Below are positions 16,287 through 34,178 of a DNA stretch of 64,000 nt, in pieces. The notes under the pieces were generated by a model that was not told where the DNA came from, made no database searches, and saw only the letters and a list, made by a program, of their open reading frames with translations. Source of the stretch: Candidatus Azambacteria bacterium (GTDB lineage Bacteria > Patescibacteriota > Minisyncoccia > GWC2-36-17 > WO2-46-25); NCBI GenBank assembly GCA_016234725.1, contig JACRAK010000019.1, positions 5,801 through 69,800 on the forward strand, written 5' to 3'. Both the position numbers and the translations under genes were made by a program. Position 1 is the first letter of the stretch. The number at the start of each line of letters is the position of its first letter.

Positions 16287-16292
16287 GGGGGA

Positions 16293-19800: not shown

Positions 19801-20322
19801 AGCGCGATGTCGAACTTCTCGGGTGGTGCAAGCACCGATCAGAACATTGGTAAATACAGATTTACCAACACGTCTCCGGGCAACTACTCCATCACGGTGT
19901 CAGATATTGACCTTGGTTTGAGTACGTCCAAAGCGGCAGCTGCATTTACCGCGACGCGGTATGTCACATTGAAGAGGGATTCGGTAAGTGGCGCGACGGT
20001 TGCAAAGACGCAACTTCGTCCGGGTGTGTTGTACACCGCTTCCGCGCTTCACTTCTCTGACATTACGAGCTGGACAGTGACCGCGGGCAATGTGGGTGAG
20101 CAGATATTCACGCCGTTCACCATTGACGCCTCAAACGGCACCGGTTATGTAGATATTTATGTCTTGGCTGACACGACTGATACAGGCGCGTCAACAATAA
20201 CAATATCTAATAGCCTCGGTTCCGGAAACAATGTTGTCACATGGGGTGATGGCGTATCCGCAAGCACAAGCGTCACATCGGTAGACGGCATGCCGGCCAT
20301 CGGTGCGACGGTTACCTACTAG
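16858..20322 (+). CDS. giant secreted Ser/Thr/Ala/Gly-rich repeat surface protein (putative S-layer or adhesin-like)
   Basis: Signal peptide (…FAFTASA|QVA), no Cys, and repeated beta-rich units of about 100 aa sharing LxDGxTQLGAT…AGQTKxLxVKADI. 1154 aa. Confidence 0.8.
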   Translation: MSNQPLVGQNAKKKLSQFLSATLAFTTTVSLSGFALMFAFTASAQVATLSDGDVVKTADNPDVYIVKMHPHGQYAGWKRLILNPEVFNLYGHLKWSNIKTVNQATVDAYHTSALVRGENDPKVYVLAPNGDVGTKTWITNEAEFLAAGYDWSQIAQVNNKERDMYTTAGSQQQVPAATGTGLMVSLASNTAAAGSIVSELTGSGTGLTADGAQAQVSMLTANFAAGSDGDVAVTTLKVKRMGISADADIANAYLYDGATRVAEMTNISSTYISFVNASGLFTVSRGTSKAITVKMDVANGTSAGKTMAFAINVASDVVAGTATVSGSFPIVGNGMTTANVGDLGKITIADVSSSTTVDPGQTGYEVWKFSVAAADQKVSVSHIKLTNVGSVATTDLTNIKLMDGATQLGATAATLAVDGTVTFDLSSNPLVITAGQTKNLSVKADIVGGTTRTFRFSVQRSADIVAMDTNYGVYLKPNQTDSFLVIQPAAATTINSGTLTISIDPASPTGNVAAGYTDQELARFAFKASGEAVKVSSLTATSTTTGTGGLNNAKLYLDGTQVGATADIATTPNTTFTFGNSFIIPAGATKTLVIKAEVKTAAGVAYNAGETIQAKLVAGSLNAQGQTSMTSISTSAANGNTLTVQTGLLTTSANTGLANATTALPTGVKGSTNVKIASFVITAGSGEGADVSQIVVKNGATEVALGRDFQNLTLKSGSSQIGTTVGTLSTTAANTYTFNPSPAISINAGQQYVVDVYADVLSSASNAYAVGTGVVHTPVILDSVTATSKSTNSDASDATDRNGQSVFIALAGSLTVAAASDMPIAQNRAMGQTGQTLATFKLTTGTPEAVNISSITVTDLLSATATAATGSVTNLSLWNSAGVQVGSTVASMSSSAVGLNVLATFNGLTLNVAKDKSEVLTLKGDMNTYPNAVSGSAHMFKVQGNGDVTAVGATSGQTIAMTGAAISGNNQRVYRAELTVASAMSNFSGGASTDQNIGKYRFTNTSPGNYSITVSDIDLGLSTSKAAAAFTATRYVTLKRDSVSGATVAKTQLRPGVLYTASALHFSDITSWTVTAGNVGEQIFTPFTIDASNGTGYVDIYVLADTTDTGASTITISNSLGSGNNVVTWGDGVSASTSVTSVDGMPAIGATVTY

Positions 20323-20325
20323 TAG

Positions 20326-20856
20326 ATCTCAAAACTCGCATACTGCTTGTGACAGTATGATGAGTTTACCCGCCTAAGTTTCTTTAAAGAAATTTTGGCA
20401 GGGACCGCAAAGAGCCCCGAATTTCGGGGCTCTTTGCATTTCTGCTTTCGCGTTTTTGTTTTCGTTATTACTCAATCTTACGAGGTGCGACCTCGTAAGA
20501 TTGAGAGATACTCAAGCAAACACCTCCCCCATTTCGGGGGAGGTGTTTTGCGTTTGCGGAGGCGTTTTGTTTTACCCGCAATCGCCTTGGCGACGGCGGG
20601 TGTTTAGGGATGTTTTGCGTTTGCAGATGTATTTTGCGTTTTTGTTGTTATGCCAATATTCGATGTCATTCTACTCCGATCGGAGTAGAATGACATGGTG
20701 TGTGGAATTGGCGTTAATAATTCTTATGAGACTAAGTCTCGTAAGAATCAAACATCTCCCCAGAAATAGGGAGATGTTTTGTTTTAGTGGATGTGTTTTG
20801 TGTTTTTGTGATTTTTTATATTCGGTCGTCCGACGACCGAATATTGTTTTACCTCG
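20326..20856 (+). repeat. array of at least 8 different perfect GC-rich hairpins, each followed by a T-rich tract (tgttttgcgttt-like)
   Basis: Hairpins at about 20332-20367, 20408-20436, 20473-20505, 20521-20543, 20664-20699, 20721-20743, 20752-20773 and 20818-20844. Spacing is irregular and the motif gttttg[ct]gttt recurs. Confidence 0.75.
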
Positions 20857-21621: not shown

Positions 21622-23907
21622 ATGGTTTTCCGAGAAAGCACTATCGTTTCCATTATAAAAGCCGGCGTATACGCCGCTCTTTTTTTACCGTTTATAGTCG
21701 TTCCGCTGTTTCTTTTTCCCTTTGCCACTTCGCGCGGCTTTTTGTTTCAGATCATCGTTGAGTTCGTTTTTGCGCTCTGGGCGGTGCTTGCGTTGAAAAA
21801 CCCTGTGTATCGCCCCAAAAAGACAGCGCTTTTTCTCGCGCTGTCTTTTTATTTTTTAGCAGTACTGCTTTCTACGATCTTCGGGCTTGACCCGTACCGG
21901 AGCTTTTTTGGCAACTACGAACGCATGTGGGGGTTCTTTTCGCTTGTACATTTCTTTTTGTTTTTTGTGGTGTGCGCGGGAATGTTCAAAACAAAAGAAG
22001 AATGGGCAAGGATCATCAAGATCACGCTTATTGTCGGCGCGCTTTCCGTTGCTTTTGGCATGTTCCAATTCGTCGGTTCGCTTGTGATGAGCGGCAGTGC
22101 GCCGCGCATTATGAGTACCATCGGCAATCCGGCGTTTTTTGCAAGTTATCTTTTCTTTGTATGTTTTTTTGCATTCCTTTTTTATGTGCGCGCCAAACTG
22201 CAGGGAAGTTCGGAATACTCACTTCGTTTTTTGTATAGCGCGCTTTCGCTTGTGGCGGTGTTTGCAATTTTAGCTACCGCAACGCGCGGCGCGGCGGTAG
22301 GGCTTGCGGCGGTATTTTTTGTTGGCGCGGCGTTGCTCGCGGTATTTTCCAAGAAACGCGCGTTGAAGATCGGCGCGATATCGTTTGTTGTTCTTTCGCT
22401 TCTTGGGGTAGTGGTGCTTGTCTCGCAGGGGGCGTTGTTTGAAAAGCCGGAGCGCATCACGCAAGAACAGTTTTATGGTATAGATCATTTCGACGCGCCG
22501 GTCGGGGAAGCGCAGAGCGTGCCGTTCCTTTCGCGTATTGCAAATATCTCGCTTTATGACGTAACGGTGCAAACGCGCCTTATCGCGTGGAAGTCGGCAC
22601 TCGGAGGAATGAAGGAGTCGTCTTTGCTTGGCGTAGGGCCGGAGAATTTTATTCTCGCGTTCAACAAACAGTTTGACCCGGCATTTTATTCCTATGAGCG
22701 TTCAGAAGTATGGTTTGACCGCGCGCATGATATCTATATCGACATGCTCGTAACGCACGGGTGGGTAGGGTTGATTGCGTATCTGGCTCTTTTTGCCGCG
22801 GCATTGTATACGATCATCTCGCTGTATAAAAAAGGTAAGCTCGATGCCTCGCACGCATTCGTATTTGCGCTGTTTTTTGTCGCGTACGCGGCGCAAAACA
22901 TTTTCTTGTTTGATTCGTTCTCGGCGTTTCTGATGTTTATCGTTGCGCTTGCGTATCTCAATAGTTTTTCTCAAGAACAAAATGCACCAGCGCCTCGCGG
23001 GGGATTTGTGAGCGTATCGATGCTTGCCGTGCCGCTCATTGGTGTGCTTTTGGTGAGTTATTTTTTTACTGCACGACCGGCCGCGGAAGCGTATTTTATC
23101 TCAAAGGCAGAAAGCGGAAGATACGATATCCATCAAACGATGGAATATTACCGGCAGGCGACCGCATATCATACATATGGCGACAACGAAGCACACAGTC
23201 GTATGGCGCTTGCGGTGGCAAAGTACATTCAGGGCGTTGAAACAAAAGAATTGCCGTCAGGCGTTGAAGCGTATCTCGATGAAGCGATCGCCGCATTGAA
23301 GCAAAACATCGACCAGACCAATCAATATCTCTTACTCTATCGGCTTCAGCTTTCCGATCTGTATAATTTGAAGCTCTCCCGTACAGGAATGGCGTCGCCC
23401 GAGATAGAAGACATTATTCGCACATCTATCGCGATAAGCCCGGGAAGAATGGAGTTTGAATTCGCGCTTGCGCAAACTGAATTTTTGAAGGGGGATTATC
23501 AGAAATCCATTGATATTCTGCTGGGAGCGTCAGCGAAAAACTCAGACCACCCTATGCCATATTGGAAGATCGCGCAAGCGTATCATTTCATGGGAAGCGA
23601 TGAGAAAGGCATCCCGTATCTTGAAAAGGCGTTATATCTCGGGCAAGGCGTTCGTACTGCGAAAGAGGTGCTGTGGGCGGAGAAGTATTATGTAGAGCAC
23701 GAAGACCTCGTGAAAATCATCTATATTGACCAGCGGATGCTGCAGGCAGGAGTGGATGATGCGGAGGCAATACGCCTTCATATGAACATGGCGGTTGTCT
23801 ACGCAAAGCTTGGCAAGAAAGAAAAAGCCATTGAGCACGCGCAAGCAATCGCGCAGCTCGACCCCTCCCAACGTGAAGCCGTGGATAACTTTATTAAAGA
23901 GTTATAA
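21622..23907 (+). CDS. polytopic membrane protein, O-antigen ligase/Wzy_C-like, with C-terminal TPR domain (paralog 1 of 3)
   Basis: About 12 TM helices followed by about 280 aa of TPR-like helices. Paralogous to the 28719 and 30808 proteins. Confidence 0.7.
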   Translation: MVFRESTIVSIIKAGVYAALFLPFIVVPLFLFPFATSRGFLFQIIVEFVFALWAVLALKNPVYRPKKTALFLALSFYFLAVLLSTIFGLDPYRSFFGNYERMWGFFSLVHFFLFFVVCAGMFKTKEEWARIIKITLIVGALSVAFGMFQFVGSLVMSGSAPRIMSTIGNPAFFASYLFFVCFFAFLFYVRAKLQGSSEYSLRFLYSALSLVAVFAILATATRGAAVGLAAVFFVGAALLAVFSKKRALKIGAISFVVLSLLGVVVLVSQGALFEKPERITQEQFYGIDHFDAPVGEAQSVPFLSRIANISLYDVTVQTRLIAWKSALGGMKESSLLGVGPENFILAFNKQFDPAFYSYERSEVWFDRAHDIYIDMLVTHGWVGLIAYLALFAAALYTIISLYKKGKLDASHAFVFALFFVAYAAQNIFLFDSFSAFLMFIVALAYLNSFSQEQNAPAPRGGFVSVSMLAVPLIGVLLVSYFFTARPAAEAYFISKAESGRYDIHQTMEYYRQATAYHTYGDNEAHSRMALAVAKYIQGVETKELPSGVEAYLDEAIAALKQNIDQTNQYLLLYRLQLSDLYNLKLSRTGMASPEIEDIIRTSIAISPGRMEFEFALAQTEFLKGDYQKSIDILLGASAKNSDHPMPYWKIAQAYHFMGSDEKGIPYLEKALYLGQGVRTAKEVLWAEKYYVEHEDLVKIIYIDQRMLQAGVDDAEAIRLHMNMAVVYAKLGKKEKAIEHAQAIAQLDPSQREAVDNFIKEL

Positions 23908-23948
23908 TACTTTATACTTTTAAACCCTTAAACATTTAAACTTTTCCC

Positions 23949-24419
23949 ATGAGCACTGCAAAATCATTTGAAGATCTGTTTGTGTGGCAAAAATCCCGGG
24001 AACTGGTAAACTGCATTTATTCGTTTACACGGAAACCGCTATTTGCCAATGATCGGGGACTTGCCGATCAGATCACTCGCGCCGCCGCATCGGTTTTATC
24101 CAATATCGCAGAAGGATTTGAGCGGGGAAGCAGGGAGGAGACGGTATATTTTCTGTACATCGCAAAGGCATCGTGCGGCGAAGTACGCGCGCAATTATAC
24201 GTCGCACTCGACCAAAAATACATCACGAAGACAGAGTTCGAAAAAGCTGCTGATCTGTGTCGTTTCACATCGTCGCTTATTTCTAAATTCATCGAAAGTT
24301 TAAAAGTATCACCGCATAAAGGCATAAAGTTCAAAAAGCCGATCGACAAGGAAAGAGAAGAATTTGAAAAGCAACTCCTCAGCTATCTCCCTACCGACCA
24401 CCCACTTCGCAATACGTAA
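23949..24419 (+). CDS. four-helix-bundle protein (TIGR02436 / Avd-like, 23S rRNA intervening-sequence protein family)
   Basis: FEDLFVWQKSRELV…ITRAAASVLSNIAEGFERGS…FLYIAKASCGEVRAQL matches the family consensus. Confidence 0.85.
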   Translation: MSTAKSFEDLFVWQKSRELVNCIYSFTRKPLFANDRGLADQITRAAASVLSNIAEGFERGSREETVYFLYIAKASCGEVRAQLYVALDQKYITKTEFEKAADLCRFTSSLISKFIESLKVSPHKGIKFKKPIDKEREEFEKQLLSYLPTDHPLRNT

Positions 24420-24482
24420 CCACTAATTTTTTAAACCCTTATACTGTTAGACATTTGAACTTTATATCTTTAAACTAAATCT

Positions 24483-24986
24483 ATGGAATCACAAGAGCAA
24501 GCACAACAAAACAAAAAAAGAGTCCCAAAAGCGCTAAAGATCGCGGGGATTGCAATTGGTGCACTTGCCGTTTTTCTAATAACAGCGTTTTACGGCCTTT
24601 CGTGGTATGGAGAGTGGAGCTTGAGGCAAGACGTTGCACGGATCATTGAGCAGCAAAACCGGCCATATCTTGAAGACACCTATGGAGGAAAAACGCCAAA
24701 AGAAACACTTGAGCTTTTCATTGCTGCAGTCGAAAAAGAGGACTTTACTCTCGCAAGCAAATACTTTGTTTTGAGCAAACAAAGAGAATGGGAGAGCGGA
24801 TTGGGAAAGATAAAGGAAAGGAATAATTTGAATTTACTGCTCGAAAAGATGTATAAAATGGAAGACAGGGGATTTTTAGGCCCCGATTCATTTCAAATGG
24901 CGGCAAAAGATGAAAAAGGCGTTTTTATGACTTTCATATCATTTATTAAATATCCATCTGGTATCTGGAAAATTCAAGAACTCTAA
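24483..24986 (+). CDS. hypothetical membrane-anchored protein
   Basis: N-terminal TM followed by a soluble domain. Confidence 0.45.
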   Translation: MESQEQAQQNKKRVPKALKIAGIAIGALAVFLITAFYGLSWYGEWSLRQDVARIIEQQNRPYLEDTYGGKTPKETLELFIAAVEKEDFTLASKYFVLSKQREWESGLGKIKERNNLNLLLEKMYKMEDRGFLGPDSFQMAAKDEKGVFMTFISFIKYPSGIWKIQEL

Positions 24987-24987
24987 A

Positions 24988-27900
24988 ATGACAAAAAAAA
25001 TCTCATTTTTTCTCATAGTTTTTGCATTCATTTCCCTTGTTTTTTTTCAGCAGGGCAGGGGATACGATGACAAAACCACCCACCCAGGTCTTACTGACGA
25101 GATGGTTGATTTTTATAATGCTTCATTTGATGCAAAATTAACCAGCGAAGAAAAAGAGTGGATAGTTCAGGGAGCGATAGATGAAGATATTCCGCCTCGG
25201 TGGATAAACCATTTTTATGATCCAATTTATAACGAAGGATGGAAAGCAGAAAATCTCGGCACCGTACCGCCCTCAACACTTCGCTTTCTTTCCGGCATAT
25301 TTTTTAACATCAATACAGAAATTGTTTCTTCAAAGCAGTGGGTTCATGATGAGGTTTTACAGGCGCGCTATACAAGTTATGGTGGAAATAACACGTGGGA
25401 AAATGCTATTCGCCAATATGCAAACGGCAATAAAAAAGATGCATATTATATTTTAGGTCATGTTTTGCATTTGCTTGAAGACAAGACAGTTCCTGATCAC
25501 ACAAGGAACGATACTCATGCTCATGAAGGATCATTTATTAGTGGCGATGGAGGTAGTCCATATGAAGATTATGGCAGGAATTTTAATCGGCAGAATTTAA
25601 CGACAGCGCAAGAGTTGCGCCAGTTGAATAAACAACCATTTTTTCTACCTTCAATTGATGAATATTTTGATTATCTTGCAAAGTATTCAAACGGCTATTT
25701 TTTTAGCGAACATACAATAAATTTAAAAAAATATACGAATCCTAAAATTATAAAAGAAAGGATCTACAATAATGATCTTTTTTTAGGTTACAGCAAGGAT
25801 AAGGATGGAATAGAATTTCCATTGGTAAAAATAAAAGAAACGTTTGATACAGGAAGTGGGGGCGTATTGCGAGAATATTCTGTAAATGAAAAATATATCT
25901 TAGAGAATTATTTCTCCCGGCTTACTCAAGAGGCGGTTCTATCTGGTGCCGGTGTTATTAAGTTATTTCACGAGGAAGCGGAAAGGGCTAAACAAAACAA
26001 AGCATCTATTTCTCCTGTACCACAAATAAGCTGGTGGCAACAAATGAGATCTCCTTTATATGGTGGCATTGCCTTGTATAATAACGTAAACGAAACAGTG
26101 GTAAGCGCATATAGTTTTGTTACCTCTTTTACCGCTAATACCATCTCTTTTTTTGGTAATTACTCAAATCTATTTGCCGCGCAGCTGAGCGGGTTGATCA
26201 GTACAAACGCACAGCCAGCGCCTGCGCCGGCGGTGGTTGTCGTGCAAGAACCCGCTTTGGTGCCTGTTGAAATCAATGCGGGTTCGCCCATCCCTCCGCA
26301 ATCGATAGATGTCCCCGCAGAGACAGCCGCCGCTCCCACGATAGCTGCTCCGCAAGTAACACCCGCGGCAGAGATGATTACTGTGCCGCCGCCCGCTAAT
26401 GTAGTAGAAATTCCCGCGATAATATCCGAAGCGATCGTAGATGTTCTGCCTTTACCCGCGCCGGTATATCGCGGCAGCGCTTCCGTGACGGGTGTTTCGC
26501 CGGATGCATTGGTGGCACAAAATAATACCCCATTAACCGCAGCAGAGACACAGACAACAAATACAACGACAGCCACAACTTCTACAAATGATACGCTTGC
26601 GACAACGACCGACAGCACTTTTGCAACCACGACCGATGCGACGAAAGGCGATACGGCAACATCAACGGAAGAAGTGATCGTGTCAGCGACACCGACCGAG
26701 CCGGTGATCGCAGAGACACCAGAGGTCATTGATGGGCCGCCGGTCGTCATCAACGAAATTGCCTGGATGGGCACGAAAGCGCAGGCAAATGACGAATGGA
26801 TAGAGCTGTATAACAAAACAAACAGCGACATCGACCTTTCCGGCTGGATGCTTGAAAGCAGGAATCAGCGATTTTCCGTCGCATTGCAGGGCGTGATTCT
26901 TGCGAAGGGATATTTTTTGCTTGAACGTACTGCAAGCACGACGACAGATCAAGCGGAGAACATGACATACTCTTCGCACAAAGGCGTGTTGGTGGACTCC
27001 GGACCGGATGCAAATGTGTATCTCAAAAACGGCACGACAACAGTTGACAATGTTGATTTTAACAACCGTTGGATCGCAGGAGAGAACGGGGTGAAGCGCA
27101 CCATGGAGCGGGTGAGTCCATATGCGACGAGCACGCTCTCATACAATTGGAAAACATATTCCGAAGCGCTTACACCGCCATTTGCAAAAGCCGCAATCGT
27201 AGATGGTATTGCAAACGACATCCTCGGTACGCCGGGCGCGAAAAACAGCGTGACCGGATACTATACGCCAACGGGGGGTGTCACCGAGAATACCGTATGG
27301 CGTAAGGCGTACAGCCCGTATTATGTGCCGGCCTCCACCGCCATTCTGCAAAATGCGACGCTTACGATAGAGCCGGGAACAGTGGTTAAATTTGCTAAAG
27401 GAGGATACTCTTATCCCGGTGGGCTGGAGGTGCATGGTGTTTTAAAGGCGGAGGGCACGCAAGCCGATCAGATCATTTTTACTTCATTTCTGGACGATGC
27501 GGTAGATGGTATCGATTCCAATCAAGATGGAAAATCCACAAGTCCTGCGCCCGCAGATTGGATGCGCATTGATTTTTTCAACACGACGAAGCCATCGGTG
27601 ATCCGTTACGCAAAAATATACTATGGCGGACAGGGGTACACCAATGCTAACGGTTATCCCATGTATTCCGGCGCAGTTAATATTCAAAATGCAAGCCCTG
27701 TTATTTCTGATTCCCTGTTTGACGGCAATAAAGCGATATCTCTCTATGTCAAAGGAGATTCGCATCCGATCATTACAGGAAACACTATTAAAAACACCGT
27801 GACGCCATACGGATACGGCATCCAACTTGCCAATGCCAGCTCCACAGCGGACATTATTGGGAATATTTTTGAGGACAATGGCGTCGGTATCAGCTCTGAA

Positions 27901-28722
27901 TCCGCGACAAGTACGCCGCTTATTGTGAGGGACAATACATTCGCGCGCAATCAGAAAAACGGCGAGTTTAAGGGCGGCACCGACTTCAACCTTGATAACG
28001 CGAATAATCAGGACAGCGAGCGTAAAGGAGGGTTTTATATTCGGCTTGTTGTGAGCGAGGGACAGACAAAAACGCTGAAACAAGATACGATGCCGTATAT
28101 TCTCGAAAGCGGGTTTACCGTAGCGGAAGGAGGCACGCTCACCATTGAGCCGGGCGCGGTCATTAAAAGCAAAAATTTAAACGATTTCGGTTCTTTTGCG
28201 GTGCCGTTTATCATAGAAGGAACGCTGCGCGCACAAGGAACAGCGGCCGCACCGATCGTATTCACCGCATTTGCAGATGATAGCGACGGATATGACAGTG
28301 ATGGTTCGGCAGCCGCCCCCACTCCCGGCGCATGGAAAAACATCCAATTTATCGGCGCAACATCGTCCGATTCTATTTTAGAATATGTGAGTGTTCGTTA
28401 CGGAGGACGCGGTACGAATGTATGTCCCTATGCGTACTTCAGTGGTCCGTGCATGGAATATAAAGGCGCGGTACTTGTGCAGGATGCAAGCCCGACCATT
28501 TCGCACGCGGCATTTAACCGCAATCTCGCGATAGCTATTTTCGTAGAAGGGGATGCGCAACCGATCATCGAATACTCTGATATTCGCGATACACAAGTAG
28601 GAGTGAAAAGTCCGCGGGAAACTATCGGCGGCATCGGTATCAGCATTGGCGCGCAGTCAACGCCGACGCTTACCGATAATACTTTCTCAAACAATCTCGA
28701 GGATGTAATAGATAGGCCATGA
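24988..28722 (+). CDS. giant secreted protein: N-terminal His-rich putative metallohydrolase domain, Pro/Thr-rich linker, lamin-tail domain, right-handed beta-helix repeats
   Basis: Signal peptide; HVLHLLEDKTVPDHT / HAHEG; lamin-tail domain motif VVINEIAWMG…EWIELYN…DLSGW; repeated NxxxxN/GxGI beta-helix rungs. 1244 aa. Confidence 0.8.
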   Translation: MTKKISFFLIVFAFISLVFFQQGRGYDDKTTHPGLTDEMVDFYNASFDAKLTSEEKEWIVQGAIDEDIPPRWINHFYDPIYNEGWKAENLGTVPPSTLRFLSGIFFNINTEIVSSKQWVHDEVLQARYTSYGGNNTWENAIRQYANGNKKDAYYILGHVLHLLEDKTVPDHTRNDTHAHEGSFISGDGGSPYEDYGRNFNRQNLTTAQELRQLNKQPFFLPSIDEYFDYLAKYSNGYFFSEHTINLKKYTNPKIIKERIYNNDLFLGYSKDKDGIEFPLVKIKETFDTGSGGVLREYSVNEKYILENYFSRLTQEAVLSGAGVIKLFHEEAERAKQNKASISPVPQISWWQQMRSPLYGGIALYNNVNETVVSAYSFVTSFTANTISFFGNYSNLFAAQLSGLISTNAQPAPAPAVVVVQEPALVPVEINAGSPIPPQSIDVPAETAAAPTIAAPQVTPAAEMITVPPPANVVEIPAIISEAIVDVLPLPAPVYRGSASVTGVSPDALVAQNNTPLTAAETQTTNTTTATTSTNDTLATTTDSTFATTTDATKGDTATSTEEVIVSATPTEPVIAETPEVIDGPPVVINEIAWMGTKAQANDEWIELYNKTNSDIDLSGWMLESRNQRFSVALQGVILAKGYFLLERTASTTTDQAENMTYSSHKGVLVDSGPDANVYLKNGTTTVDNVDFNNRWIAGENGVKRTMERVSPYATSTLSYNWKTYSEALTPPFAKAAIVDGIANDILGTPGAKNSVTGYYTPTGGVTENTVWRKAYSPYYVPASTAILQNATLTIEPGTVVKFAKGGYSYPGGLEVHGVLKAEGTQADQIIFTSFLDDAVDGIDSNQDGKSTSPAPADWMRIDFFNTTKPSVIRYAKIYYGGQGYTNANGYPMYSGAVNIQNASPVISDSLFDGNKAISLYVKGDSHPIITGNTIKNTVTPYGYGIQLANASSTADIIGNIFEDNGVGISSESATSTPLIVRDNTFARNQKNGEFKGGTDFNLDNANNQDSERKGGFYIRLVVSEGQTKTLKQDTMPYILESGFTVAEGGTLTIEPGAVIKSKNLNDFGSFAVPFIIEGTLRAQGTAAAPIVFTAFADDSDGYDSDGSAAAPTPGAWKNIQFIGATSSDSILEYVSVRYGGRGTNVCPYAYFSGPCMEYKGAVLVQDASPTISHAAFNRNLAIAIFVEGDAQPIIEYSDIRDTQVGVKSPRETIGGIGISIGAQSTPTLTDNTFSNNLEDVIDRP

Positions 28723-30806
28723 GCGACAATATTCTTGTAAACATCATCAAGTGGCTCACGGGCGCGGCATTGTGCGTGCCGCTTGTGTTTTCGGTGTATT
28801 TTTACCCGTCACACATTGCGCCCCAGACATTTCTTTTTCGTCTGATCGTGGAGGCGATGCTGTTTGCGTATCTTGTATTGGTGTTGCGAAACAGCGCGTA
28901 TGCGCCAAAGTTTTCCCCGATGCTGTGGGCAGTTGCTGTATTTATCGGGGCGCAGGCGCTTGCGGGCGCGTTCGGGGTTGACCCAATACAGAGTTTTTTT
29001 TCCGATTTTGAGCGGCATTGGGGATTTGTAACCATTATCCATTTTTTCGCATTTTTTGTGATCGTGAGCGCGGTGGTGCGCGAGGAGCGCTCGTGGCGCT
29101 GGCTCCTTGCGGTGTCGGTAGGAGCAAGTTTTCTTTCTGCAGGATATGGTGTGTACCAATTCTTCTTTGAAGATATCGGGCGCATCTATAGCACCATCGG
29201 TAATGCCGGATTTTTTGCGACGTATCTGTTACTCAATGCGGCACTTGCGCTATGGCTTGCGCTCGGCGCGTTTTTTGCGCGTCCGTGGCGGTTTGCGTTC
29301 GGAGGCATTGCCCTTGTGAATGCAGTGGTCGCCATGCTCACCAGCACGCGTGCGGCGATGCTTGCGCTTGCGGCGGGAATATTCGTGATAGGGTGCGGAT
29401 ATATTTTTTGGTACGAGTATAAGACAAAGCGGTTGAAGATGGTCCTTGCGACGCTTCTTGTTGTTTTTGTGCTGGTGGGAGGTGCGGTGCTTGCGCTTGC
29501 GCATACCGGCTTTGGTGCAAAAATAGGGATCAGCCGGCTTGCTATTTTTTCGCTTTCCGACGTTACGACGCGCACGCGCCTTTTTGCGTGGCAGGCGGGG
29601 TGGAAAGGATTTTTGGATGCGCCGCTTCTTGGCGCGGGCCCTGAAAATTTCAAAGTCGTGTTCAACAAATATTTTGACTCCGGGTTTTACGCGTATGAAA
29701 TAGGAGAGACCGAGTTTGACCGCGCGCATAACATATTCATCGAACAGCTCTCTACGGGCGGCGCTATCGGCTTTATCGCGTATGGTACTCTGTTTGCGGT
29801 GTTTTTGTATCTTGTATGGAGCGGACAGCGCACGGGTGCATTGAGCGCGCACGCTTCAATTATCCTTGCCGCGTTTGCGGTGGCGTATGGCGTGCAAGGG
29901 TTTTTCAACATGGACACATTCACATCCTTTTTGCCGCTCTTTTTGGTGTTTGGATATGTCGCGGCACGCACCACGCATACGAGCGAAGAACATCCTCATG
30001 TGCCAAATGCCGCGCAAGGATCGCTCACATTTTCTTTTGCGGCGGTTGCGCTTATAGTATTTTTTGCGCTTGCGTATGTGGGGTGGGCGGTGAATATACA
30101 TCCTGCCCGAGCCGATCGCGCGCTTTCCGATGCGGACGATCTGCGCCAGCGCATAGGGGAGATGGATCAAAGCGATGTGCTTGGTGCGGCAACGGCAGCA
30201 TACCGGCGCGCACTTGACCTTTCTACGTACGGAAAAGGAACGGTTCAAAAATCGCTTGCCGCATACGCGCTCGGTTTCTATCAAACATTCGGGAGGCGAT
30301 CACCGCAAGCATTCAGCGACGAATTTCTTCCATTTTCCATGCGTGAGCTTGAAATATATATCCAACAGCATCCTCGTGATTATCTCGCGCATAGCACACT
30401 CGGGAAACTGTATAATGTTCAACTCCTGCTTACTGCAAAAAAAGATGAGCAGATCGAACGCATGCTCGCGCAGGCACAGACGCTTGCGCCGGAACGGCTT
30501 GAGATGCCGTTGGTGTTCGCACAGCGCGCGTTGATCGAGGGCGATTACAATGCCGCGGCCGCGCACGCAGACGAAGGGATAGCAAAAAGCAAAAAATTTC
30601 TCGATTTTTATCGTGTCGCGTTTATCGCGTATAGCTTACAAGGAAATGAAGACAAGGCGTTTCGCGCGCTCGATGAGGGCGTACACAATGGACTTTCTCT
30701 GGTAAGCGAGAAAGAAATGGGGTGGCTTGCACAGCAATACGAGCGGCGCGGCATGGAGGAGGAAGCAGAAAAGTGGTATGCGCGCGCGGCAGAGGTGGCT
30801 CAATGA
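28719..30806 (+). CDS. Wzy_C-like polytopic membrane protein with C-terminal TPR domain (paralog 2)
   Basis: ATGA start/stop overlap with the upstream giant gene. Same architecture as the 21622 protein. Confidence 0.75.
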   Translation: MSDNILVNIIKWLTGAALCVPLVFSVYFYPSHIAPQTFLFRLIVEAMLFAYLVLVLRNSAYAPKFSPMLWAVAVFIGAQALAGAFGVDPIQSFFSDFERHWGFVTIIHFFAFFVIVSAVVREERSWRWLLAVSVGASFLSAGYGVYQFFFEDIGRIYSTIGNAGFFATYLLLNAALALWLALGAFFARPWRFAFGGIALVNAVVAMLTSTRAAMLALAAGIFVIGCGYIFWYEYKTKRLKMVLATLLVVFVLVGGAVLALAHTGFGAKIGISRLAIFSLSDVTTRTRLFAWQAGWKGFLDAPLLGAGPENFKVVFNKYFDSGFYAYEIGETEFDRAHNIFIEQLSTGGAIGFIAYGTLFAVFLYLVWSGQRTGALSAHASIILAAFAVAYGVQGFFNMDTFTSFLPLFLVFGYVAARTTHTSEEHPHVPNAAQGSLTFSFAAVALIVFFALAYVGWAVNIHPARADRALSDADDLRQRIGEMDQSDVLGAATAAYRRALDLSTYGKGTVQKSLAAYALGFYQTFGRRSPQAFSDEFLPFSMRELEIYIQQHPRDYLAHSTLGKLYNVQLLLTAKKDEQIERMLAQAQTLAPERLEMPLVFAQRALIEGDYNAAAAHADEGIAKSKKFLDFYRVAFIAYSLQGNEDKAFRALDEGVHNGLSLVSEKEMGWLAQQYERRGMEEEAEKWYARAAEVAQ

Positions 30807-30807
30807 T

Positions 30808-32958
30808 ATGAACAGAGAAGAAGCGAAAAAACTGTATATAAATATTGCGAAAGGAGGAGTATTTGCCTCCCTGCTTTCGCCCGTGGTGCTTTCGGCGCCG
30901 TTCTTTTTTCCGTTTATCGTACCAAAGACATTGTTTTTTCAAGTGGCGGTTACGGTCGCATTGTTCTTTTATATCGTGGTGGTGGCGCTTGATAAAAGAT
31001 ACGCGCCGAAATTCGATACGCTTACCAAGCTCGTGTTCGCGTTTTTTGGCGTCTATGTGCTTGCCGCGGCATTGGGGGAAAACCCCGCACGGAGTTTTTT
31101 TGGCACCTATGAGCGGATGCTTTCGGTGGTGAATATGGCGCATTTCGTGGCGCTGTATCTGATAGTGAGGTCGGTGTTCGTGTCTCAAAAGGACTGGTTG
31201 TGGCTTTTGCGCGCATCGGTGGGCGCGAGCGTGCTGGTAAGTTTATACGGTGTGGGCCAAAAAGTTGGCATTGATTGGTTTTATCATGCGGGCATCGATC
31301 GTATCGATTCCACTATCGGCAATGCGGCGTTTGTTGCGGGGTATCTCATATTTGCCGTATTTTTTGCATGTATGGTGCTGGTGAAGGACGGCAACCCCGT
31401 ATTTCGCGCGTGTGCGGCAAGTTCGCTCGCGCTGAACGCGGTCATTATCTACTTCACCGGCACGCGCGGTGCGGCAGTTGCGCTTGCGGCGGCGAGCATT
31501 GTGCTTCTTGCCGCATATTTTTTCAGACCGGTCCGCGCGCCGCTCATAAAAAAGGAACACATGAAATGGGCGCTGACCGTGATCGCACTCGCGCTGCTTG
31601 CGGTGGTGGCGCTTGAAGGGAAGGGCGTGTACCGGTCGTTTCAGCGCTTCTCATCGATCTCGCTTGCCGATGCCACGGTGCAGACACGCCTGCTTTCCGT
31701 TTCCACGGGTTGGGACGGGTTTTTGGCTCGGCCGGCGCTTGGATGGGGCCCGGAGAATTACAACCTTGTATTCGATAAATACTATAATCCCAAACTGTAC
31801 CCCACCGAGAATTGGTTTGATCACGCGCACAATATTTTTTTTGATATCGCGACGACCATGGGCATTGCGGGGCTTATCGCATATGCGGCGCTTCTTTTGT
31901 ATCTTGTGTTCCGCACGATCTCGTTCGCGCGAGCCGCTCCTGAGAATTATTGGGTTGGGGTATTTGCATGCGCGCTCGTCGTTGCGTATTTTATGCAGAA
32001 CGTATTTGTGTTCGACAGTTTGGCGACCTACCTTCCGTTCTTTATCTTGCTTGCATTCGCAAGCAGCGGATTTAAGTTGGGCAACGCAGATGAGCGCGCC
32101 CCAGAAGACAAGGCGAGAAAATTTTATAACCCATCGCTCACGATCATCGCGGTGCTTTTGCCGGTTTTTGCGGTTGTGGTGTATTGGGTTGATGTGCGGC
32201 CGGCGCTTGGCGCGTATCATACGGTGGCGGCATTGCAGATCCCGGTATCCTATGCGGGCGATGCGCTCGAGCGTTTCAAACAGGCGCTTGCGTACAGCAA
32301 TTTCGGGCGCGAAGAGATCCGCGGAAAGCTCGCCGATTACACGAGCGATGTATTATATGAAAAAGACATTACGGACAGCGAATTGAAGCGCCGCATCGCA
32401 GAGTTTACGATACAAGAAATGGAAGACAGCATCGTGCATGAACCGCTCAATTTCAGGAATTATCTCTATTATGCGAATTTTTTAAGCGGCAATCACGAGG
32501 TGCTCGCGGCAGTTGGCATTTCTGACGCGCTTGCGCGTGCGGATGAAACACTCGCGCGCGCACAGGAGCTCGCACCGCAGAAACCGATACTGTATCTCCA
32601 GTGGGGAAAGGTGAAATCGCTGGAAGGGGATGTCCGGGGAGCGGTGCTGTTGTTTGAAAAGGCGGTCGCGCTGAACCCCGCCGCTATCGACTCTCAGGTG
32701 CGCCTTGCGTTCGCATACCGAATGGCCGGTGCGCGCGAGCGGTCGCTTGAAGTTTCCCGCGCTGTTCTCGGCACCGGCGCACAGCTGGATATTCGCACCT
32801 ATATCGAGTTTGCCGAAAATTTTGCGGCGCTTGGCGCATATGATGAAGCGGCGGCTATGGCGCGCAAAGCGGCCGAGCTCGACCCTTCGCTTGCAGAGCA
32901 GGCAGAGGCGTTCATGCGGACGCTTGATGCGAAAAAAAGCGCACCGGCCAAACAGTAA
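30808..32958 (+). CDS. Wzy_C-like polytopic membrane protein with C-terminal TPR domain (paralog 3)
   Basis: Start chosen at MNREEAKKLY immediately after the previous stop. The list ORF from 30727 overlaps the upstream gene. Confidence 0.75.
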   Translation: MNREEAKKLYINIAKGGVFASLLSPVVLSAPFFFPFIVPKTLFFQVAVTVALFFYIVVVALDKRYAPKFDTLTKLVFAFFGVYVLAAALGENPARSFFGTYERMLSVVNMAHFVALYLIVRSVFVSQKDWLWLLRASVGASVLVSLYGVGQKVGIDWFYHAGIDRIDSTIGNAAFVAGYLIFAVFFACMVLVKDGNPVFRACAASSLALNAVIIYFTGTRGAAVALAAASIVLLAAYFFRPVRAPLIKKEHMKWALTVIALALLAVVALEGKGVYRSFQRFSSISLADATVQTRLLSVSTGWDGFLARPALGWGPENYNLVFDKYYNPKLYPTENWFDHAHNIFFDIATTMGIAGLIAYAALLLYLVFRTISFARAAPENYWVGVFACALVVAYFMQNVFVFDSLATYLPFFILLAFASSGFKLGNADERAPEDKARKFYNPSLTIIAVLLPVFAVVVYWVDVRPALGAYHTVAALQIPVSYAGDALERFKQALAYSNFGREEIRGKLADYTSDVLYEKDITDSELKRRIAEFTIQEMEDSIVHEPLNFRNYLYYANFLSGNHEVLAAVGISDALARADETLARAQELAPQKPILYLQWGKVKSLEGDVRGAVLLFEKAVALNPAAIDSQVRLAFAYRMAGARERSLEVSRAVLGTGAQLDIRTYIEFAENFAALGAYDEAAAMARKAAELDPSLAEQAEAFMRTLDAKKSAPAKQ

Positions 32959-32972: not shown

Positions 32973-34178
32973 TTGTACCCTGAACGCAAGAAGGTGTATA
33001 ATAGAAGGGAAATGCCATTTCAACCGGTACAATCAGATCCTGAGTACCATAGTTTTCAAAGGCGGCAATCTTTTCTGTGGGTTGCGCTGTTGGGCGTTGT
33101 TTTGCTTATCGGCGGCGTAGTGTTCTTGATCGCGTATCAGCTCATGCGCGGCGGAGGGGGAAACGGCGGCGCGCCGTCTGCGGTGGTGATGCCTGCGGTG
33201 AATGCGGTGGCATCGATCATACGCGGAGAAGCTGTTTCACAGGGCGATTATTTCCTGATGAGTGAAGTATCCTCGACCGATAAGCGCCTGAGAATTTTCA
33301 AAGTGTATTATGCGCCATTTTCAAAAGAAGAGATCTTTGCGATCCCGTGGCGCGATGGCGCGGCAGCTCCCGTGGTCGCGGAGTACGGCGAAAATCTTGC
33401 GGTATTCCTTGATTCCGGGCGGAGCATAGTGATCACGCGGGAAGGGAAAACGGTGTCGCTTTCCAATTCTTTTTTTGTGCCGGAAGATCCTCACTTCACT
33501 ATTTCTCCCGATGGGAAGAAAATGGTGTATTTCAAGCAATTCTCTTCGCTCGGTACGAAAAGCCTCACGATCCGTGATCTTGAAAAGAACGAAGATGTGT
33601 TCGGTTGGCCGATAAACTCTCCCGCTTCCGAGACGTGCGATTTTAGCGGATGGTCGGCAGATGGAGGAAAAGCGTATTGCACGAGCGTAAAAAACGGCAG
33701 GGTGATGGTGAAAGCGGTTGATGTGCGGCGATATTCATATGCCGTTGCCGCATCATTTTCCGGCGTGCGGGATGCGCAATTCTATCCCGCGCATGCGCTT
33801 GTTGTCGCGGCAGACAAACAAAGCATATTCACGTTCGATATCACCACAAAAGAAAAAAAGGATGTCCTTGCGCTTGCGGGCGAAGCAGTGGAAAGCGTTT
33901 TTCTTGCGCCCGACAGATCAAAGATAGTGTTTACCGCGGGCGGTGCCGTGCATGCGGTGGGGCTTGATGGCAGTGGTAAAAAGGAGATCGATCATGCAAC
34001 CCGCATACTTTCATTATTGCCTGACGGCGCTCGCGCGCTGGTAGAGGTGTCTGAAGACGGAGGAGCGCATTATGCCATCATCGGTATAGACGAAGAGAGC
34101 CATGCGGAGTTGGGCGGCATTACCAAGGATATCGTGCATGCCCAGTTCATCGGCTGGTTCTCAGGAGGCGTGAAGTAG
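32973..34178 (+). CDS. hypothetical membrane-anchored beta-propeller-like protein
   Basis: TM helix near the N-terminus and a repetitive beta-rich C-terminal region. Start uncertain; the alternative is MPFQ at 33012. Confidence 0.5.
   Translation: MYPERKKVYNRREMPFQPVQSDPEYHSFQRRQSFLWVALLGVVLLIGGVVFLIAYQLMRGGGGNGGAPSAVVMPAVNAVASIIRGEAVSQGDYFLMSEVSSTDKRLRIFKVYYAPFSKEEIFAIPWRDGAAAPVVAEYGENLAVFLDSGRSIVITREGKTVSLSNSFFVPEDPHFTISPDGKKMVYFKQFSSLGTKSLTIRDLEKNEDVFGWPINSPASETCDFSGWSADGGKAYCTSVKNGRVMVKAVDVRRYSYAVAASFSGVRDAQFYPAHALVVAADKQSIFTFDITTKEKKDVLALAGEAVESVFLAPDRSKIVFTAGGAVHAVGLDGSGKKEIDHATRILSLLPDGARALVEVSEDGGAHYAIIGIDEESHAELGGITKDIVHAQFIGWFSGGVK

Follow-up and report, generated by a model that had tools for sequence, protein, structure and literature searches.

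Three ancient Wzy_C-TPR paralogs linked to a giant surface protein in Candidatus Azambacteria: candidate protein O-oligosaccharyltransferases of a monoderm cell surface

Wzy_C enzymes can be polymerases, and TPR domains are also found in polysaccharide-export scaffolds. In the S-layer O-oligosaccharyltransferase (OTase) WsfB of Paenibacillus alvei, a Wzy_C domain is combined with a C-terminal TPR domain (PMC2943079). Monoderm Wzy_C enzymes can also ligate polymers to glycolipids, as TacL does (PMC5727136). An Arg/Arg/His triad of PglL/WaaL-type enzymes has been named as functionally important, residues G316, G318 and Q178 have been given as PglL-specific, and pglL genes usually adjoin their target gene (PMC3643930). 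The envelope of CPR cells includes an S-layer but lacks an outer membrane (bioRxiv 10.1101/2020.05.14.094862), and lipid A-core is therefore excluded as an acceptor.

We analysed a 64-kb window of DNA from Candidatus Azambacteria (Patescibacteria), an ultra-small CPR bacterium, for which an initial annotation had proposed that three paralogous membrane proteins transfer glycans onto giant secreted proteins. As the annotation had remarked, LPS genes are not evident: none is seen in the 64-kb window, and the host is monoderm, without an LPS acceptor. The Wzy_C-TPR family to which the paralogs belong is large and carries no annotation beyond "O-antigen ligase family"; a literature search found no study of, and no experiment on, any of its members.

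Architecture, fold and conserved residues of the paralogs

Paralog 1 (21622..23907, 761 aa), paralog 2 (28719..30806, 695 aa) and paralog 3 (30808..32958, 716 aa) lie on the + strand, exactly where they had first been placed. The mechanical ORF of paralog 3 opens at TTG 30727, but its true start is ATG 30808, because the N-termini of all three proteins then align and because an identical 716-aa NCBI protein (P0001) exists, an "O-antigen ligase family protein" of Candidatus Azambacteria. The start codon of paralog 2 (ATG, 28719-28721) overlaps the stop codon of the upstream gene, giantB (TGA, 28720-28722), as ATGA, and the TGA of paralog 2 is separated by a 1-nt spacer from the ATG of paralog 3; both junctions, pointed out earlier, are real as read in the sequence.

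All three proteins contain a Wzy_C core (Pfam PF04932; E 3e-17, 1.3e-18 and 2.2e-21 for paralogs 1, 2 and 3, each above the gathering score), followed by a predicted external TPR domain in paralogs 1 and 3 and by a divergent TPR-like domain in paralog 2. Pfam TPR models match paralog 1 (TPR_8, TPR_2 and TPR_1) and paralog 3; the C-terminal domain of paralog 2, too divergent for a Pfam TPR match, aligns over its full length with paralogs 1 and 3 and is recognised by the HMM of the family TPR domain. Aligned in pairs over their full length, the proteins are 27-30% identical (E 4e-55 to 3e-87), which puts the paralogy, judged by these alignments, far above chance level. The common architecture described in the initial annotation, a Wzy_C-type core and then TPR, is thus borne out by Pfam, the family HMM and full-length alignments.

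The AF2 model of paralog 3 (pLDDT 92.5, pTM 0.90) comprises 13 TM helices and a TPR domain at residues 480-711. The earlier count of about 12 helices holds for the WaaL-like 12-helix core, to which one extra helix is added. With this model, Foldseek returns WaaL 7tpg_B as the top solved-structure match (E 4e-6, TM 0.63), and a profile search with the TM domain finds WaaL 7TPG (E 2e-14) and 9RMK (E 9e-11), a 610-aa "Oligosaccharyltransferase" whose residue numbering agrees with Neisseria PglL. Because the model has 13 TM helices, it predicts an extracellular TPR domain beside the active-site face; hydropathy and the positive-inside rule, together with the model, likewise place the large loop and the TPR domain outside. 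Furthermore, stand-alone TPR-domain homologs carry an N-terminal KKKH-TM anchor and would therefore be oriented N-in, TPR-out. Of the two locations first considered for the TPR domain, cytoplasmic or periplasmic, these predictions favour the outside-facing one and argue against the cytoplasmic one.

In the profile alignment, R220, R294 and H341 of paralog 3 correspond to R191, R265 and H313 of CmWaaL and to R224, R298 and H349 of PglL. The alignment to PglL and WaaL, suggested earlier as a way to locate the Arg and His residues, finds this triad in all three paralogs, and it is invariant in 45-60 homologs. Specifically, the conserved residues of paralog 1 are R101, R162, N169, R222, R319, D366, H369 and D431, and paralog 2 retains R99, R155, N162, R211, R287, D334, H337 and D399. 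In addition, the glycines of the family motif LGWGPEN align with PglL G316 and G318, and paralog 3 N172 aligns with PglL Q178. At six positions that are otherwise conserved, paralog 2 differs from the family consensus, and it is the most derived of the three. By alignment, all three are genuine enzymes of the WaaL/PglL superfamily, their catalytic Arg/Arg/His intact.

Giant surface proteins and the surrounding genes

The gene giantA (16858..20322, + strand) encodes a 1154-aa multi-Ig surface protein that is enriched in Thr, Ala, Ser and Gly and lacks Cys. It starts with a hydrophobic segment, an anchor or signal, followed at about residues 50-165 by two small alpha/beta domains, which probably bind the wall, and by a chain of about eight beta-sandwich (Ig-like) domains. 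Its AF2 model is all-beta (pLDDT 85.2), and its Foldseek matches are limited to generic Ig-chain adhesins, PrgB among them. The 218 homologs are all from Patescibacteria, none has a protein name, and several carry PG_binding_1 (PF01471) in place of the N-terminal domain. We consider giantA a candidate major envelope or S-layer-type protein.

The second giant gene, giantB (24988..28722, + strand), encodes a 1244-aa LTD/beta-helix protein. Its signal peptide is followed by a domain that weakly resembles Zn-dependent phospholipase C (Zn_dep_PLPC at E 0.0039, which is below cutoff), by a linker rich in Pro, Ala and Thr (residues 400-585 or so, one segment of it with 46% S+T), by LTD (PF00932, E 2.5e-12) and by two right-handed beta-helix regions (Beta_helix, E 1.5e-14; NosD). 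The description of two huge Ser/Thr-rich secreted proteins is accurate: S+T amounts to 23.7% in giantA and 16.8% overall in giantB, where the ORFs of the window average 11.3% (sd 3.2), and both proteins have an N-terminal hydrophobic segment.

A survey of co-occurrence with giant S/T-rich proteins, also suggested earlier, reveals a strong, phylum-wide linkage between Wzy_C-TPR and giant surface protein genes, in which giantA, not the bracketed giantB, is the conserved partner. The giantA family has 54 loci that could be assessed: in 29 of them the ORF immediately after giantA is a Wzy_C-TPR gene, and in 38 such a gene is among the first three ORFs, whereas chance adjacency is about 1%, given one to three copies per genome of about 800 genes; six further loci have a TM-anchored TPR protein only. 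Most single-copy Wzy_C-TPR genes, which are of the paralog 3 type, do not adjoin a full-length giantA.

The position of giantB differs between lineages: in one relative (L002) the three paralogs are in tandem with no LTD protein between them, and in another (L004) the LTD protein is placed after all three. The initial focus on giantB as the bracketed partner is therefore not upheld. A small single-TM protein, p167 (24483..24986, + strand; TM residues 18-36), always precedes giantB, its homologs lying directly 5' of giantB homologs in L001, L004, L006, L035, L073, L095, L096, L105, L131 and L134; the two form a movable pair, accessory to the module. A 23S rRNA-intervening-sequence-type four-helix-bundle protein (23949..24419, + strand; PF05635, E 4e-31) occupies the same site in L001, is close to giantA in L085, and moves together with the insert that lies between the first two paralogs.

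Orthologs of paralog 1 share 83% (L001) and 53% (L002) identity with it, and those of paralog 2 share 80% (L001) and 42% (L002), so that orthologs at 42-53% compare with 27-30% between paralogs. The phylogeny of the paralogs, an NJ tree, contains a paralog 1 clade of ten members, eight of them first after giantA; the paralog 1 orthogroup is always the first gene after giantA. The paralog 2 clade is its sister, and paralog 3 groups with widespread single-copy genes beside a Bac_transf phosphoglycosyl transferase (PGT) and a Wzx flippase. Rather than a local event, the triplication is ancient, with three old orthogroups in conserved gene order.

Upstream of giantA, GalU, UTP-glucose-1-phosphate uridylyltransferase (14152..15018, + strand; TIGR01099 galU, 354.5 bits, cutoff 326.8), is a conserved neighbour, with homologs 5' of giantA in L002, L009, L088, L089, L094-L096 and L108. 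It is followed by p326 (14936..15916, + strand, start codon uncertain), a small protein, probably a regulator, whose C-terminal part weakly matches a DeoR-type HTH (HTH_DeoR, E 1.4e-4); its homologs, of 185-290 aa, lie directly 5' of giantA in more than 20 loci. A near-consensus sigma-70-type sequence, TTGACC-17-TATAAT (16258..16286, + strand; 11/12 positions), is the only strong + strand match within 15800-16900 and may function as a promoter; lying about 570 nt 5' of the giantA start, it would therefore produce a long 5' leader. Directly 3' of giantA is a battery of about eight different hairpins (20369..20844, + strand; inverted repeats I1-I7 and I9, direct repeat family D1) with T-rich GTTTTGCGTTT-type repeats between them. 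Several score as intrinsic terminators, and the battery probably represents stacked terminators insulating giantA from downstream genes. With this battery and a distance of 1.3 kb between giantA and paralog 1, co-transcription of the two is doubtful here. Downstream of paralog 3, p401 (32973..34178, + strand, start codon uncertain) encodes a single-TM protein (35-53) with a beta-propeller-like (PD40/TolB-like) external domain (weak matches: PD40, E 1.2e-4; TolB-propeller, E 6.5e-4). It is a conserved neighbour in the Azambacteria-related clade (71% identity in L001, 37% in L002) and is followed by dnaG and rpoD.

Candidate functions of the paralogs

Our best explanation, for which we see about even prospects, is that the three paralogs, membrane glycosyltransferases of the GT-C-like Wzy_C (WaaL/PglL) superfamily, are protein O-OTases for the monoderm cell surface. 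A glycan would be assembled on undecaprenyl (polyprenyl) pyrophosphate, initiated by a Bac_transf PGT and extended by cytoplasmic glycosyltransferases, with UDP-glucose from the neighbouring GalU as a possible precursor, and a Wzx-type flippase would carry the glycan, still lipid-linked, across the membrane to its outer face. Against this reading, the 64-kb window contains no PGT, flippase or glycosyltransferase gene; in its favour, among 81 family loci, 27 have a Bac_transf PGT (20 within two genes) and 20 a Wzx flippase, and GT4 glycosyltransferases, an epimerase and PMT_2 follow directly in distant lineages. In paralog 3, R220 and R294, plus R103 and R165, would hold the pyrophosphate, and His341, with Asp338 and Asp403 nearby, would transfer the glycan en bloc to an acceptor hydroxyl. 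The 13th TM helix would put the TPR domain of about 250 aa outside, where it could hold the acceptor protein. The main acceptor would be the Thr/Ser-rich, wall-anchored giantA, encoded just upstream, a second acceptor may be the Thr-rich linker of giantB, and each paralog would have its own preference as to glycan or acceptor site. Flexible regions are usually preferred by PglL-type enzymes, and the Thr/Ser of giantA lie mostly within folded beta domains, not disordered linkers, which counts against a PglL-like acceptor role. Of the original proposal, then, the enzyme family, the linkage and the LPS-free host stand, and giantB gives way to giantA as the conserved partner. The analysis shows family membership, fold, conserved residues and linkage of the genes; topology is predicted, and donor, acceptor and the separate tasks of the paralogs are inferred.

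Alternatively, though we think it unlikely, the paralogs could be glycopolymer ligases or polymerases, a lipid-linked repeat being polymerised (Wzy-like) or ligated, as by TacL or WaaL, to a glycolipid of the membrane or a component of the wall. The product would be a secondary cell-wall polymer or lipoglycan bound by the N-terminal domain of giantA, and the gene linkage would then be that of an anchor with the protein it holds, not that of enzyme with substrate; in Firmicutes, S-layer genes adjoin wall-polymer genes. The superfamily includes Wzy polymerases and TacL, the monoderm lipoteichoic-acid ligase (PMC5727136); single-copy members with PGT, Wzx, NeuB and MurB have a classic Wzx/Wzy polysaccharide context; the putative wall-binding domain of giantA is interchangeable with PG_binding_1; and the PglL-specific PglL_A model (PF15864) has no match in the paralogs even at E up to 10. 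However, neither TacL and WaaL nor the known Wzy proteins, all of about 400 aa, have a 250-aa external TPR domain. TPR and glycosyltransferase domains are combined in protein-modifying enzymes, such as TMTC/PMT-type enzymes and OGT. Fusion of TPR to a membrane glycosyltransferase, as in WsfB (PMC2943079), is of the same protein-modifying design, and the profile-PglL alignment reaches further N-terminal than that with WaaL (HMM start 129 vs 183), the family sharing the PglL-specific glycines. Moreover, the tight directional linkage, first after giantA in 29/54, is typical of OTase-target pairs (PMC3643930). Transfer onto protein rather than onto lipid or wall polymer is putative, being suggested by architecture and synteny.

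An improbable variant divides labour within one pathway, with one paralog type a Wzy polymerase, another an OTase and the third a general housekeeping ligase. Such a division would fit the two deeply split clades, paralogs 1 and 2 being giantA-linked and paralog 3 grouping with PGT/Wzx-linked single-copy genes, the gene order kept across lineages at only 42-53% identity, the exactly two copies, with a TPR protein between them, kept after giantA in distant lineages also, and a Wzy_C domain common to polymerases and ligases. Yet all three paralogs keep the full invariant residue set, including the equivalent of the WaaL/PglL catalytic His, and a TPR domain for which a polymerase has no obvious need, and no polymerase-specific sequence feature was identified in them. 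That the paralogs are instead IctB-like transporters, or TPR scaffolds for assembly or secretion of the giant proteins, is highly improbable: assembly scaffolding is common for TPR domains and the best NCBIfam matches are to IctB, a family named "putative bicarbonate transporter", but no NCBIfam equivalog is reached (weak matches only, to PEP_O_lig_1 and to IctB at 40-61 bits vs a cutoff of 366), IctB itself has the Wzy_C fold and an only putative transporter role, and the triad and a dozen external-face residues are invariant over thousands of homologs, hence pointing to a conserved enzymatic site.

Protein O-glycosylation, the reading we prefer, has a precedent in WsfB, whose Wzy_C-plus-TPR organisation the paralogs share; WsaB is without TPR but has the TPR protein WsaA adjacent to it (PMC2943079).

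The Wzy_C-TPR genes and the giant genes beside them

Three ORFs on the plus strand, paralog 1 (21622-23907, 761 aa), paralog 2 (28719-30806, 695 aa) and paralog 3 (30808-32958, 716 aa), encode membrane proteins of one common architecture, as the initial annotation had proposed. All three exceed the gathering threshold of the Pfam Wzy_C model PF04932 (cutoff 31.7 bits), scoring 63.2, 67.7 and 76.6 bits with E values of 3e-17, 1.3e-18 and 2.2e-21 for paralogs 1, 2 and 3, respectively. They can be aligned end to end with 27-30% identity (E 4e-55 to 3e-87), and are therefore true paralogs, homologous in the C-terminal domain as well as in the membrane core. The TPR assignment of the C-terminal domain likewise holds: Pfam TPR models match paralogs 1 and 3, and the corresponding domain of paralog 2 is divergent but homologous. 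The true start of paralog 3 is the ATG at 30808 and not an upstream TTG, because the N-termini then align and NCBI lists an identical 716-aa protein from Candidatus Azambacteria (Patescibacteria/CPR), which is encoded on a 105-kb contig and labelled "O-antigen ligase family protein".

Between paralogs 1 and 2 lies giantB (24988-28722), which encodes a 1244-aa protein with the LTD and right-handed beta-helix domains originally described. Its stop codon shares an ATGA overlap with the start of paralog 2, and paralog 3 follows paralog 2 after a spacer of a single base, both as annotated. The second giant gene, giantA (16858-20322), encodes a 1154-aa multi-Ig protein whose recorded Ser/Thr richness is genuine, with a Ser+Thr content of 23.7%, about four standard deviations above the window mean. 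The genes around the module are housekeeping genes (uvrA, xseA, clpB, htrA, dnaG, rpoD and tRNA-Asn), and the 64-kb window contains no LPS genes, in agreement with the first reading of the sequence. Cryo-TEM of CPR cells has revealed an S-layer and no outer membrane (bioRxiv 10.1101/2020.05.14.094862). Elsewhere, the window carries a phosphoketolase gene followed by an acetate kinase gene (within 53197-62505), an rve-type integrase gene on the minus strand (57130-58044), a fused glucose-6-phosphate dehydrogenase/6-phosphogluconate dehydrogenase gene (58731-61073) and a gene for a secreted DUF5667-Kazal-cupredoxin protein (61108-62505).

A search with giantA gave 218 homologs, the named sources of which are nearly all Patescibacteria, with two partial matches labelled Omnitrophota and Subteraquimicrobiales. 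All are annotated as "hypothetical" save one "peptidoglycan-binding domain-containing protein", and the only Pfam domain found in the homologs is an occasional PG_binding_1. In several of them the N-terminal domain is exchanged for PG_binding_1, suggesting wall binding by this part of the protein. In the AF2 model of giantA (pLDDT 85), a hydrophobic helix at the N-terminus leads into two small alpha/beta domains and about eight beta-sandwich domains. A fold search with this model returned generic Ig-domain chains (integrins, PrgB and macroglobulins) and no S-layer protein, so that the S-layer identity of giantA is a guess.

A promoter close to consensus lies about 570 nt ahead of giantA. Directly after its stop codon, at 20369-20844, about eight different near-perfect hairpins stand in a row, spaced by T-rich direct repeats that include three copies of a 37-nt unit (GxTGTTTTGCGTTT...); several of the hairpins score as intrinsic terminators, and the battery is unusually dense. 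A near-consensus promoter combined with such a hairpin battery fits a highly expressed structural gene, and giantA would be one by these two features.

Several smaller genes accompany the module. A near-consensus promoter with a TG element (20872-20899, TTGACT-16-TATAAT, 11/12) precedes two paralogous small ORFs, at about 20907-21214 (apparently interrupted) and 21244-21558, both of which start with MKK(L/P)SPKKKK and are coiled-coil-like. A four-helix-bundle protein of the 23S-rRNA-intervening-sequence type (PF05635) is encoded at 23949-24419, between paralog 1 and the p167/giantB pair; its gene occupies the same place in another Azambacterium (L001, 3126-3596) and lies near giantA in a distant lineage (L085, 17556-17939). 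Between paralog 3 and dnaG, p401 (32973-34178) encodes a protein with one TM segment and a weak beta-propeller signature of the PD40/TolB type, and its position is kept in the Azambacteria-related clade (L001, L002, L006 and L010).

Fold and conserved residues of the membrane enzymes

The AF2 model of paralog 3, built from 60 homologs, is confident (pLDDT 92.5, pTM 0.90). Its core consists of 12 helices and bears an external loop (residues 275-342) that is partly helical, with three short helices, and H341 opens helix H343-376. Residues 418-442 form a poorly ordered loop rich in Lys and Arg, which is followed by a long 13th TM helix (443-477) and an all-helical TPR solenoid (480-711). The N-in orientation derived from hydropathy and the positive-inside rule agrees with the model, and both the large loop and the TPR domain are predicted to lie outside the cell. 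Stand-alone TPR homologs in relatives start with KKKH and one TM helix, implying that the TPR domain is external there too.

The best solved Foldseek match of the paralog 3 model is the O-antigen ligase WaaL (7tpg_B, E 4e-6, TM 0.63 over the 12-TM core), and the remaining top matches are TPR proteins, OGT included. A full-length profile (A1, 60 sequences) searched against the PDB was swamped by TPR proteins, whereas the alignment restricted to the TM domain (A2, 45 sequences) recovered exactly two solved proteins, WaaL (7TPG, E 2e-14) and 9RMK (E 9e-11). The latter (solved chain 9RMK_A) is a 610-aa "Oligosaccharyltransferase" of the PglL/PglS/TfpO type whose residue numbering agrees with Neisseria PglL. 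Single-sequence phmmer reached WaaL at E 0.066 only.

In the TM-domain profile alignment, R220, R294 and H341 of paralog 3 align with R191, R265 and H313 of CmWaaL and with R224, R298 and H349 of PglL; the equivalents are R211, R287 and H337 in paralog 2 and R222, R319 and H369 in paralog 1. The PglL triad has been equated with the functionally important R215, R288 and H338 of E. coli WaaL (PMC3643930). Within the family alignments the Arg/Arg/His triad is invariant or present in 59/60 sequences. Specifically, R103, N172, R294, G312, G314, D338, H341, G352 and D403 are invariant in A1, with D338 and D403 at ≥90% in A2, while G171, R220, G355 and Y359 are at ≥90% in A1 and invariant in A2. All three paralogs keep the conserved residues of the family, the triad among them, and paralog 2 departs from the consensus at six other conserved positions. 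With PF04932 matches, a 12-TM core bearing a big extracytoplasmic loop before the His helix, and the Arg/Arg/His triad, paralogs 1-3 are clearly members of the Wzy_C superfamily.

Within that superfamily, the PglL_A motif (PF15864), which covers PglL residues 395-420 including H400, E404 and P406, has no match in the paralogs even at E up to 10, and they are therefore not to be filed as PglL orthologs. The invariant D403 lies at a distance after the catalytic His comparable to that of the PglL_A acidic residue, in a region beyond the end of the 9RMK profile alignment at residue 390. Outside PglL_A, positions Q178, N180, G316 and G318 are given as PglL-specific (PMC3643930), and the match here is partial: the LGWGPEN glycines G312/G314 align with G316/G318, N172 aligns with Q178, and N180 faces Ala. 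The paralogs reach no NCBIfam equivalog. The Wzy_C-TPR family comprises about 2,170 clusters (50% identity) at E ≤ 1e-30, nearly all of 700-800 aa.

Linkage to giantA and age of the triplication

Searching one-genome-per-species contigs from the enzyme side, we retrieved at least 591 stretches with relatives, the best 80 of which are mostly from Patescibacteria. Across 81 enzyme loci, the gene is present in one copy in 69, two in eight and three in four. A Bac_transf phosphoglycosyl transferase is encoded in 27 of these 81 loci (no more than two genes away in 20), a Wzx flippase in 20, NeuB in 13, MurB in 21 and SecA in 26; the phosphoglycosyl transferase and Wzx neighbours assign the family to a glycan pathway that is lipid-linked and depends on Wzx.

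For the reciprocal survey, metagenomes were scanned with a narrow giantA alignment (A4), the broader one (A3) having proved too diverse. Downstream sequence sufficed for the count in 54 giantA loci. A Wzy_C-TPR gene is among the first three ORFs downstream in 38 of them, and in 29 it follows giantA immediately; a further six have only a TM-anchored TPR protein, and 10 have neither. The ORFs were called by a simple script and the loci are phylogenetically non-independent, but the linkage is nonetheless very strongly enriched over a chance expectation of about 1%.

In loci of the Magasanikbacteria type, giantA is preceded by genes for, in this order, an ECF sigma factor and a membrane protein of about 430 aa, and is followed by two Wzy_C-TPR genes that enclose the gene for a TM-anchored TPR protein; next come GT4 glycosyltransferases, an epimerase and PMT_2. 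More distant Patescibacteria (L086, 7729-9827; L087, 7917-9748; and many metagenome loci, for example L119-L128, L143, L151 and L161) have an ECF-type sigma factor (about 183 aa) before giantA, together with a protein of about 430 aa that has a single TM segment and, in L086, carries DUF5667. These two look like a sigma/anti-sigma pair, and in the Azambacteria group their place is occupied by a small HTH protein of the p326 family. Stand-alone TPR proteins of 217-250 aa with one TM anchor, homologous to the TPR domain of the enzymes, are encoded in L085 (14159-14812), L086 (16532-17218) and L087 (16183-16875) and also in L106, L140, L142, L144 and L153. Two Wzy_C genes enclose their genes in some loci, and in others, where no Wzy_C gene is nearby, they follow giantA on their own; the arrangement parallels that of WsaA/WsaB. 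Directly downstream of single-copy Wzy_C-TPR genes are genes for proteins of 577-670 aa (L021, 12170-13903; also L013, L023, L026, L032, L062 and L074), which have in common with giantA only its putative wall-binding double motif, VYxIxxGxKRWI...W, placed at the C-terminus in these proteins; the protein in L021 also has an HExxH metalloprotease-like motif.

The gene order of the window recurs in L001. A more distant relative (L002) has giantA, paralogs 1-2-3 in direct tandem, p401, dnaG and rpoD, and in the Parcubacteria contig L004 two genes of the paralog 3 type come after giantA, with a small TM partner and an LTD/beta-helix gene behind them. The L002 orthologs of each paralog are 42-53% identical, compared with 27-30% among the paralogs themselves, so the triplication is old and a recent local event is rejected. 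In a rough NJ tree of 140 TM domains, paralog 1 belongs to a clade of genes that come first after giantA, paralog 2 to its sister clade, whose genes are mostly second after giantA, and paralog 3 to a separate clade with single-copy genes of many Parcubacteria.

The central part that the initial annotation gave to giantB, bracketed by the paralogs, is not borne out by the relatives: the LTD/beta-helix gene is absent from the L002 stretch, including the space between the paralogs, and is sited elsewhere in L004, L035, L073 and L162-L165, and we reject it as a core partner. The giantB-type gene always has a small single-TM protein just upstream (24483-28722 in the window, with p167 at 24483-24986; 15207-20584 in L004; also L035, L073, L095, L096, L105 and L134), and its place relative to the Wzy_C genes shifts between lineages. 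The N-terminal 340 aa of its product bear a weak likeness to zinc-dependent phospholipase C (E 0.0039) and are joined to the LTD domain by a Pro/Ala/Thr linker. Two Y1-type (IS200-like) transposase genes (9197-9901 and 14362-15057) flank the Wzy_C-TPR gene pair in L004, and another lies near giantA in L088; the flanking transposases hint at rearrangement of the module.

Candidate function and comparison with known systems

We propose, with middling confidence, that the Wzy_C-TPR paralogs are protein O-oligosaccharyltransferases, for which en bloc transfer of an Und-PP-linked glycan to protein Ser/Thr is predicted. In such a mechanism, a glycan would be built on polyprenyl pyrophosphate and turned outward by Wzx, the pyrophosphate would be bound by the Arg cluster of the Wzy_C core, and His341 would assist transfer of the glycan to surface-protein hydroxyls while the external TPR domain holds the acceptor protein. 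A larger and distinctly more tentative picture is that the giantA family could represent the major envelope glycoprotein, of S-layer type, that has long been sought in Parcubacteria-type CPR, and the Wzy_C-TPR genes that follow it the first described protein O-glycosylation system of the phylum; the TPR solenoid might then select acceptors, the two or three ancient paralogs might serve different glycans or sites, and the paralog 3 type might be a general glycosylation enzyme common to nearly all Parcubacteria.

Patescibacteria make up a large share of bacterial diversity and live attached to other cells, and their surface biochemistry is almost unknown. The candidate gene pair described here, which recurs across the phylum and couples a giant Ig-repeat protein anchored in the wall to a dedicated enzyme of the WaaL/PglL kind whose TPR domain is external, may make the glycoprotein coat behind host contact. 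The database label "O-antigen ligase family protein" is misleading for organisms without LPS, and TPR-guided O-oligosaccharyltransferases with new acceptor preferences could be of interest for glycoengineering. In the literature on CPR/Patescibacteria O-antigen ligases, S-layers and oligosaccharyltransferases, we found no paper treating the Wzy_C-TPR family.

WaaL of Cupriavidus metallidurans (PDB 7TPG/7TPJ) is the best structural match and has an identical Arg/Arg/His triad, and an Und-PP-linked donor is expected for the paralogs by homology with it. WaaL function as a lipid A-core ligase is rejected, because the 64-kb window has no LPS genes and CPR cells lack an outer membrane, so that the monoderm Candidatus Azambacteria would offer no LPS acceptor; furthermore, unlike the paralogs, WaaL has about 400 aa and no TPR domain, and its genes lie in LPS core clusters. 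A ligase or polymerase of the TacL, WaaL or Wzy kind, acting on a wall polymer or lipoglycan that anchors giantA, is a reading we consider doubtful but the strongest of the alternatives. TacL of Streptococcus pneumoniae is a lipoteichoic-acid ligase of the Wzy_C family that uses an Und-PP-linked polymer donor in a monoderm host (PMC5727136). Its architecture differs from that of the paralogs, as TacL has 397 aa, no TPR domain, a glycolipid acceptor and no linkage to a surface-protein gene, whereas the paralogs are 695-761 aa long and possess both a TPR domain of 250 aa and a 13th TM helix. Polymerase and transferase roles divided among the paralogs, which fall into different clades and all keep the triad, would be another arrangement, and an improbable one. 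A non-enzymatic or transporter role is unlikely, the IctB transporter (TIGR00947) being rejected at 40.5-60.7 bits against an equivalog cutoff of 366.4.

Returning to protein O-oligosaccharyltransferases, PglL resembles the paralogs in its triad and in its C-terminal domain, which is periplasmic in PglL and predicted to be external here. In addition, pglL usually adjoins its target gene (PMC3643930), a trait that the paralogs would have in common with it if giantA, the putative target, is indeed glycosylated. Unlike PglL, the paralogs lack a detectable PglL_A motif, have low identity to it and carry a long canonical TPR solenoid after an extra TM helix; moreover, PglL hosts are diderm Proteobacteria, and its targets are pilins and periplasmic proteins.

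A glycosyltransferase joined to a TPR solenoid that chooses protein acceptors is familiar from eukaryotic TMTC1-4, bacterial PMT_2-TPR enzymes and OGT. In structural comparisons, the C-terminal domain of the paralogs has some of its best matches in the TPR domains of OGT, but the catalytic folds, families and donors (dolichol-P-mannose or UDP-GlcNAc) are unrelated, making the likeness one of analogy and not of homology.

Closest by described architecture are the S-layer O-oligosaccharyltransferases WsfB of Paenibacillus alvei and WsaB, with WsaA, of Geobacillus stearothermophilus, whose hosts are monoderms with a glycosylated surface-layer protein, a host type that Candidatus Azambacteria would match. 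WsfB combines Wzy_C with a C-terminal TPR domain, and WsaB has a neighbouring separate TPR protein, WsaA (PMC2943079). Both layouts occur in the Patescibacterial family, as a fused TPR domain, found in all three paralogs, and as a stand-alone TM-anchored TPR protein, and in both systems the enzyme genes lie in the neighbourhood of a structural surface-protein gene. Unlike WsfB and WsaB, the Patescibacterial enzymes occur as two or three paralogs in fixed order, the proposed acceptor belongs to an unrelated multi-Ig protein family, and the glycan-synthesis genes are not clustered with the paralogs in this window. The chemistry of the paralogs is probably a familiar one, a variation on PglL and WsfB; the novelty lies in the association with a giant envelope protein throughout the phylum, in the additional helix that carries a long external TPR domain, and in the ancient, ordered paralogs.
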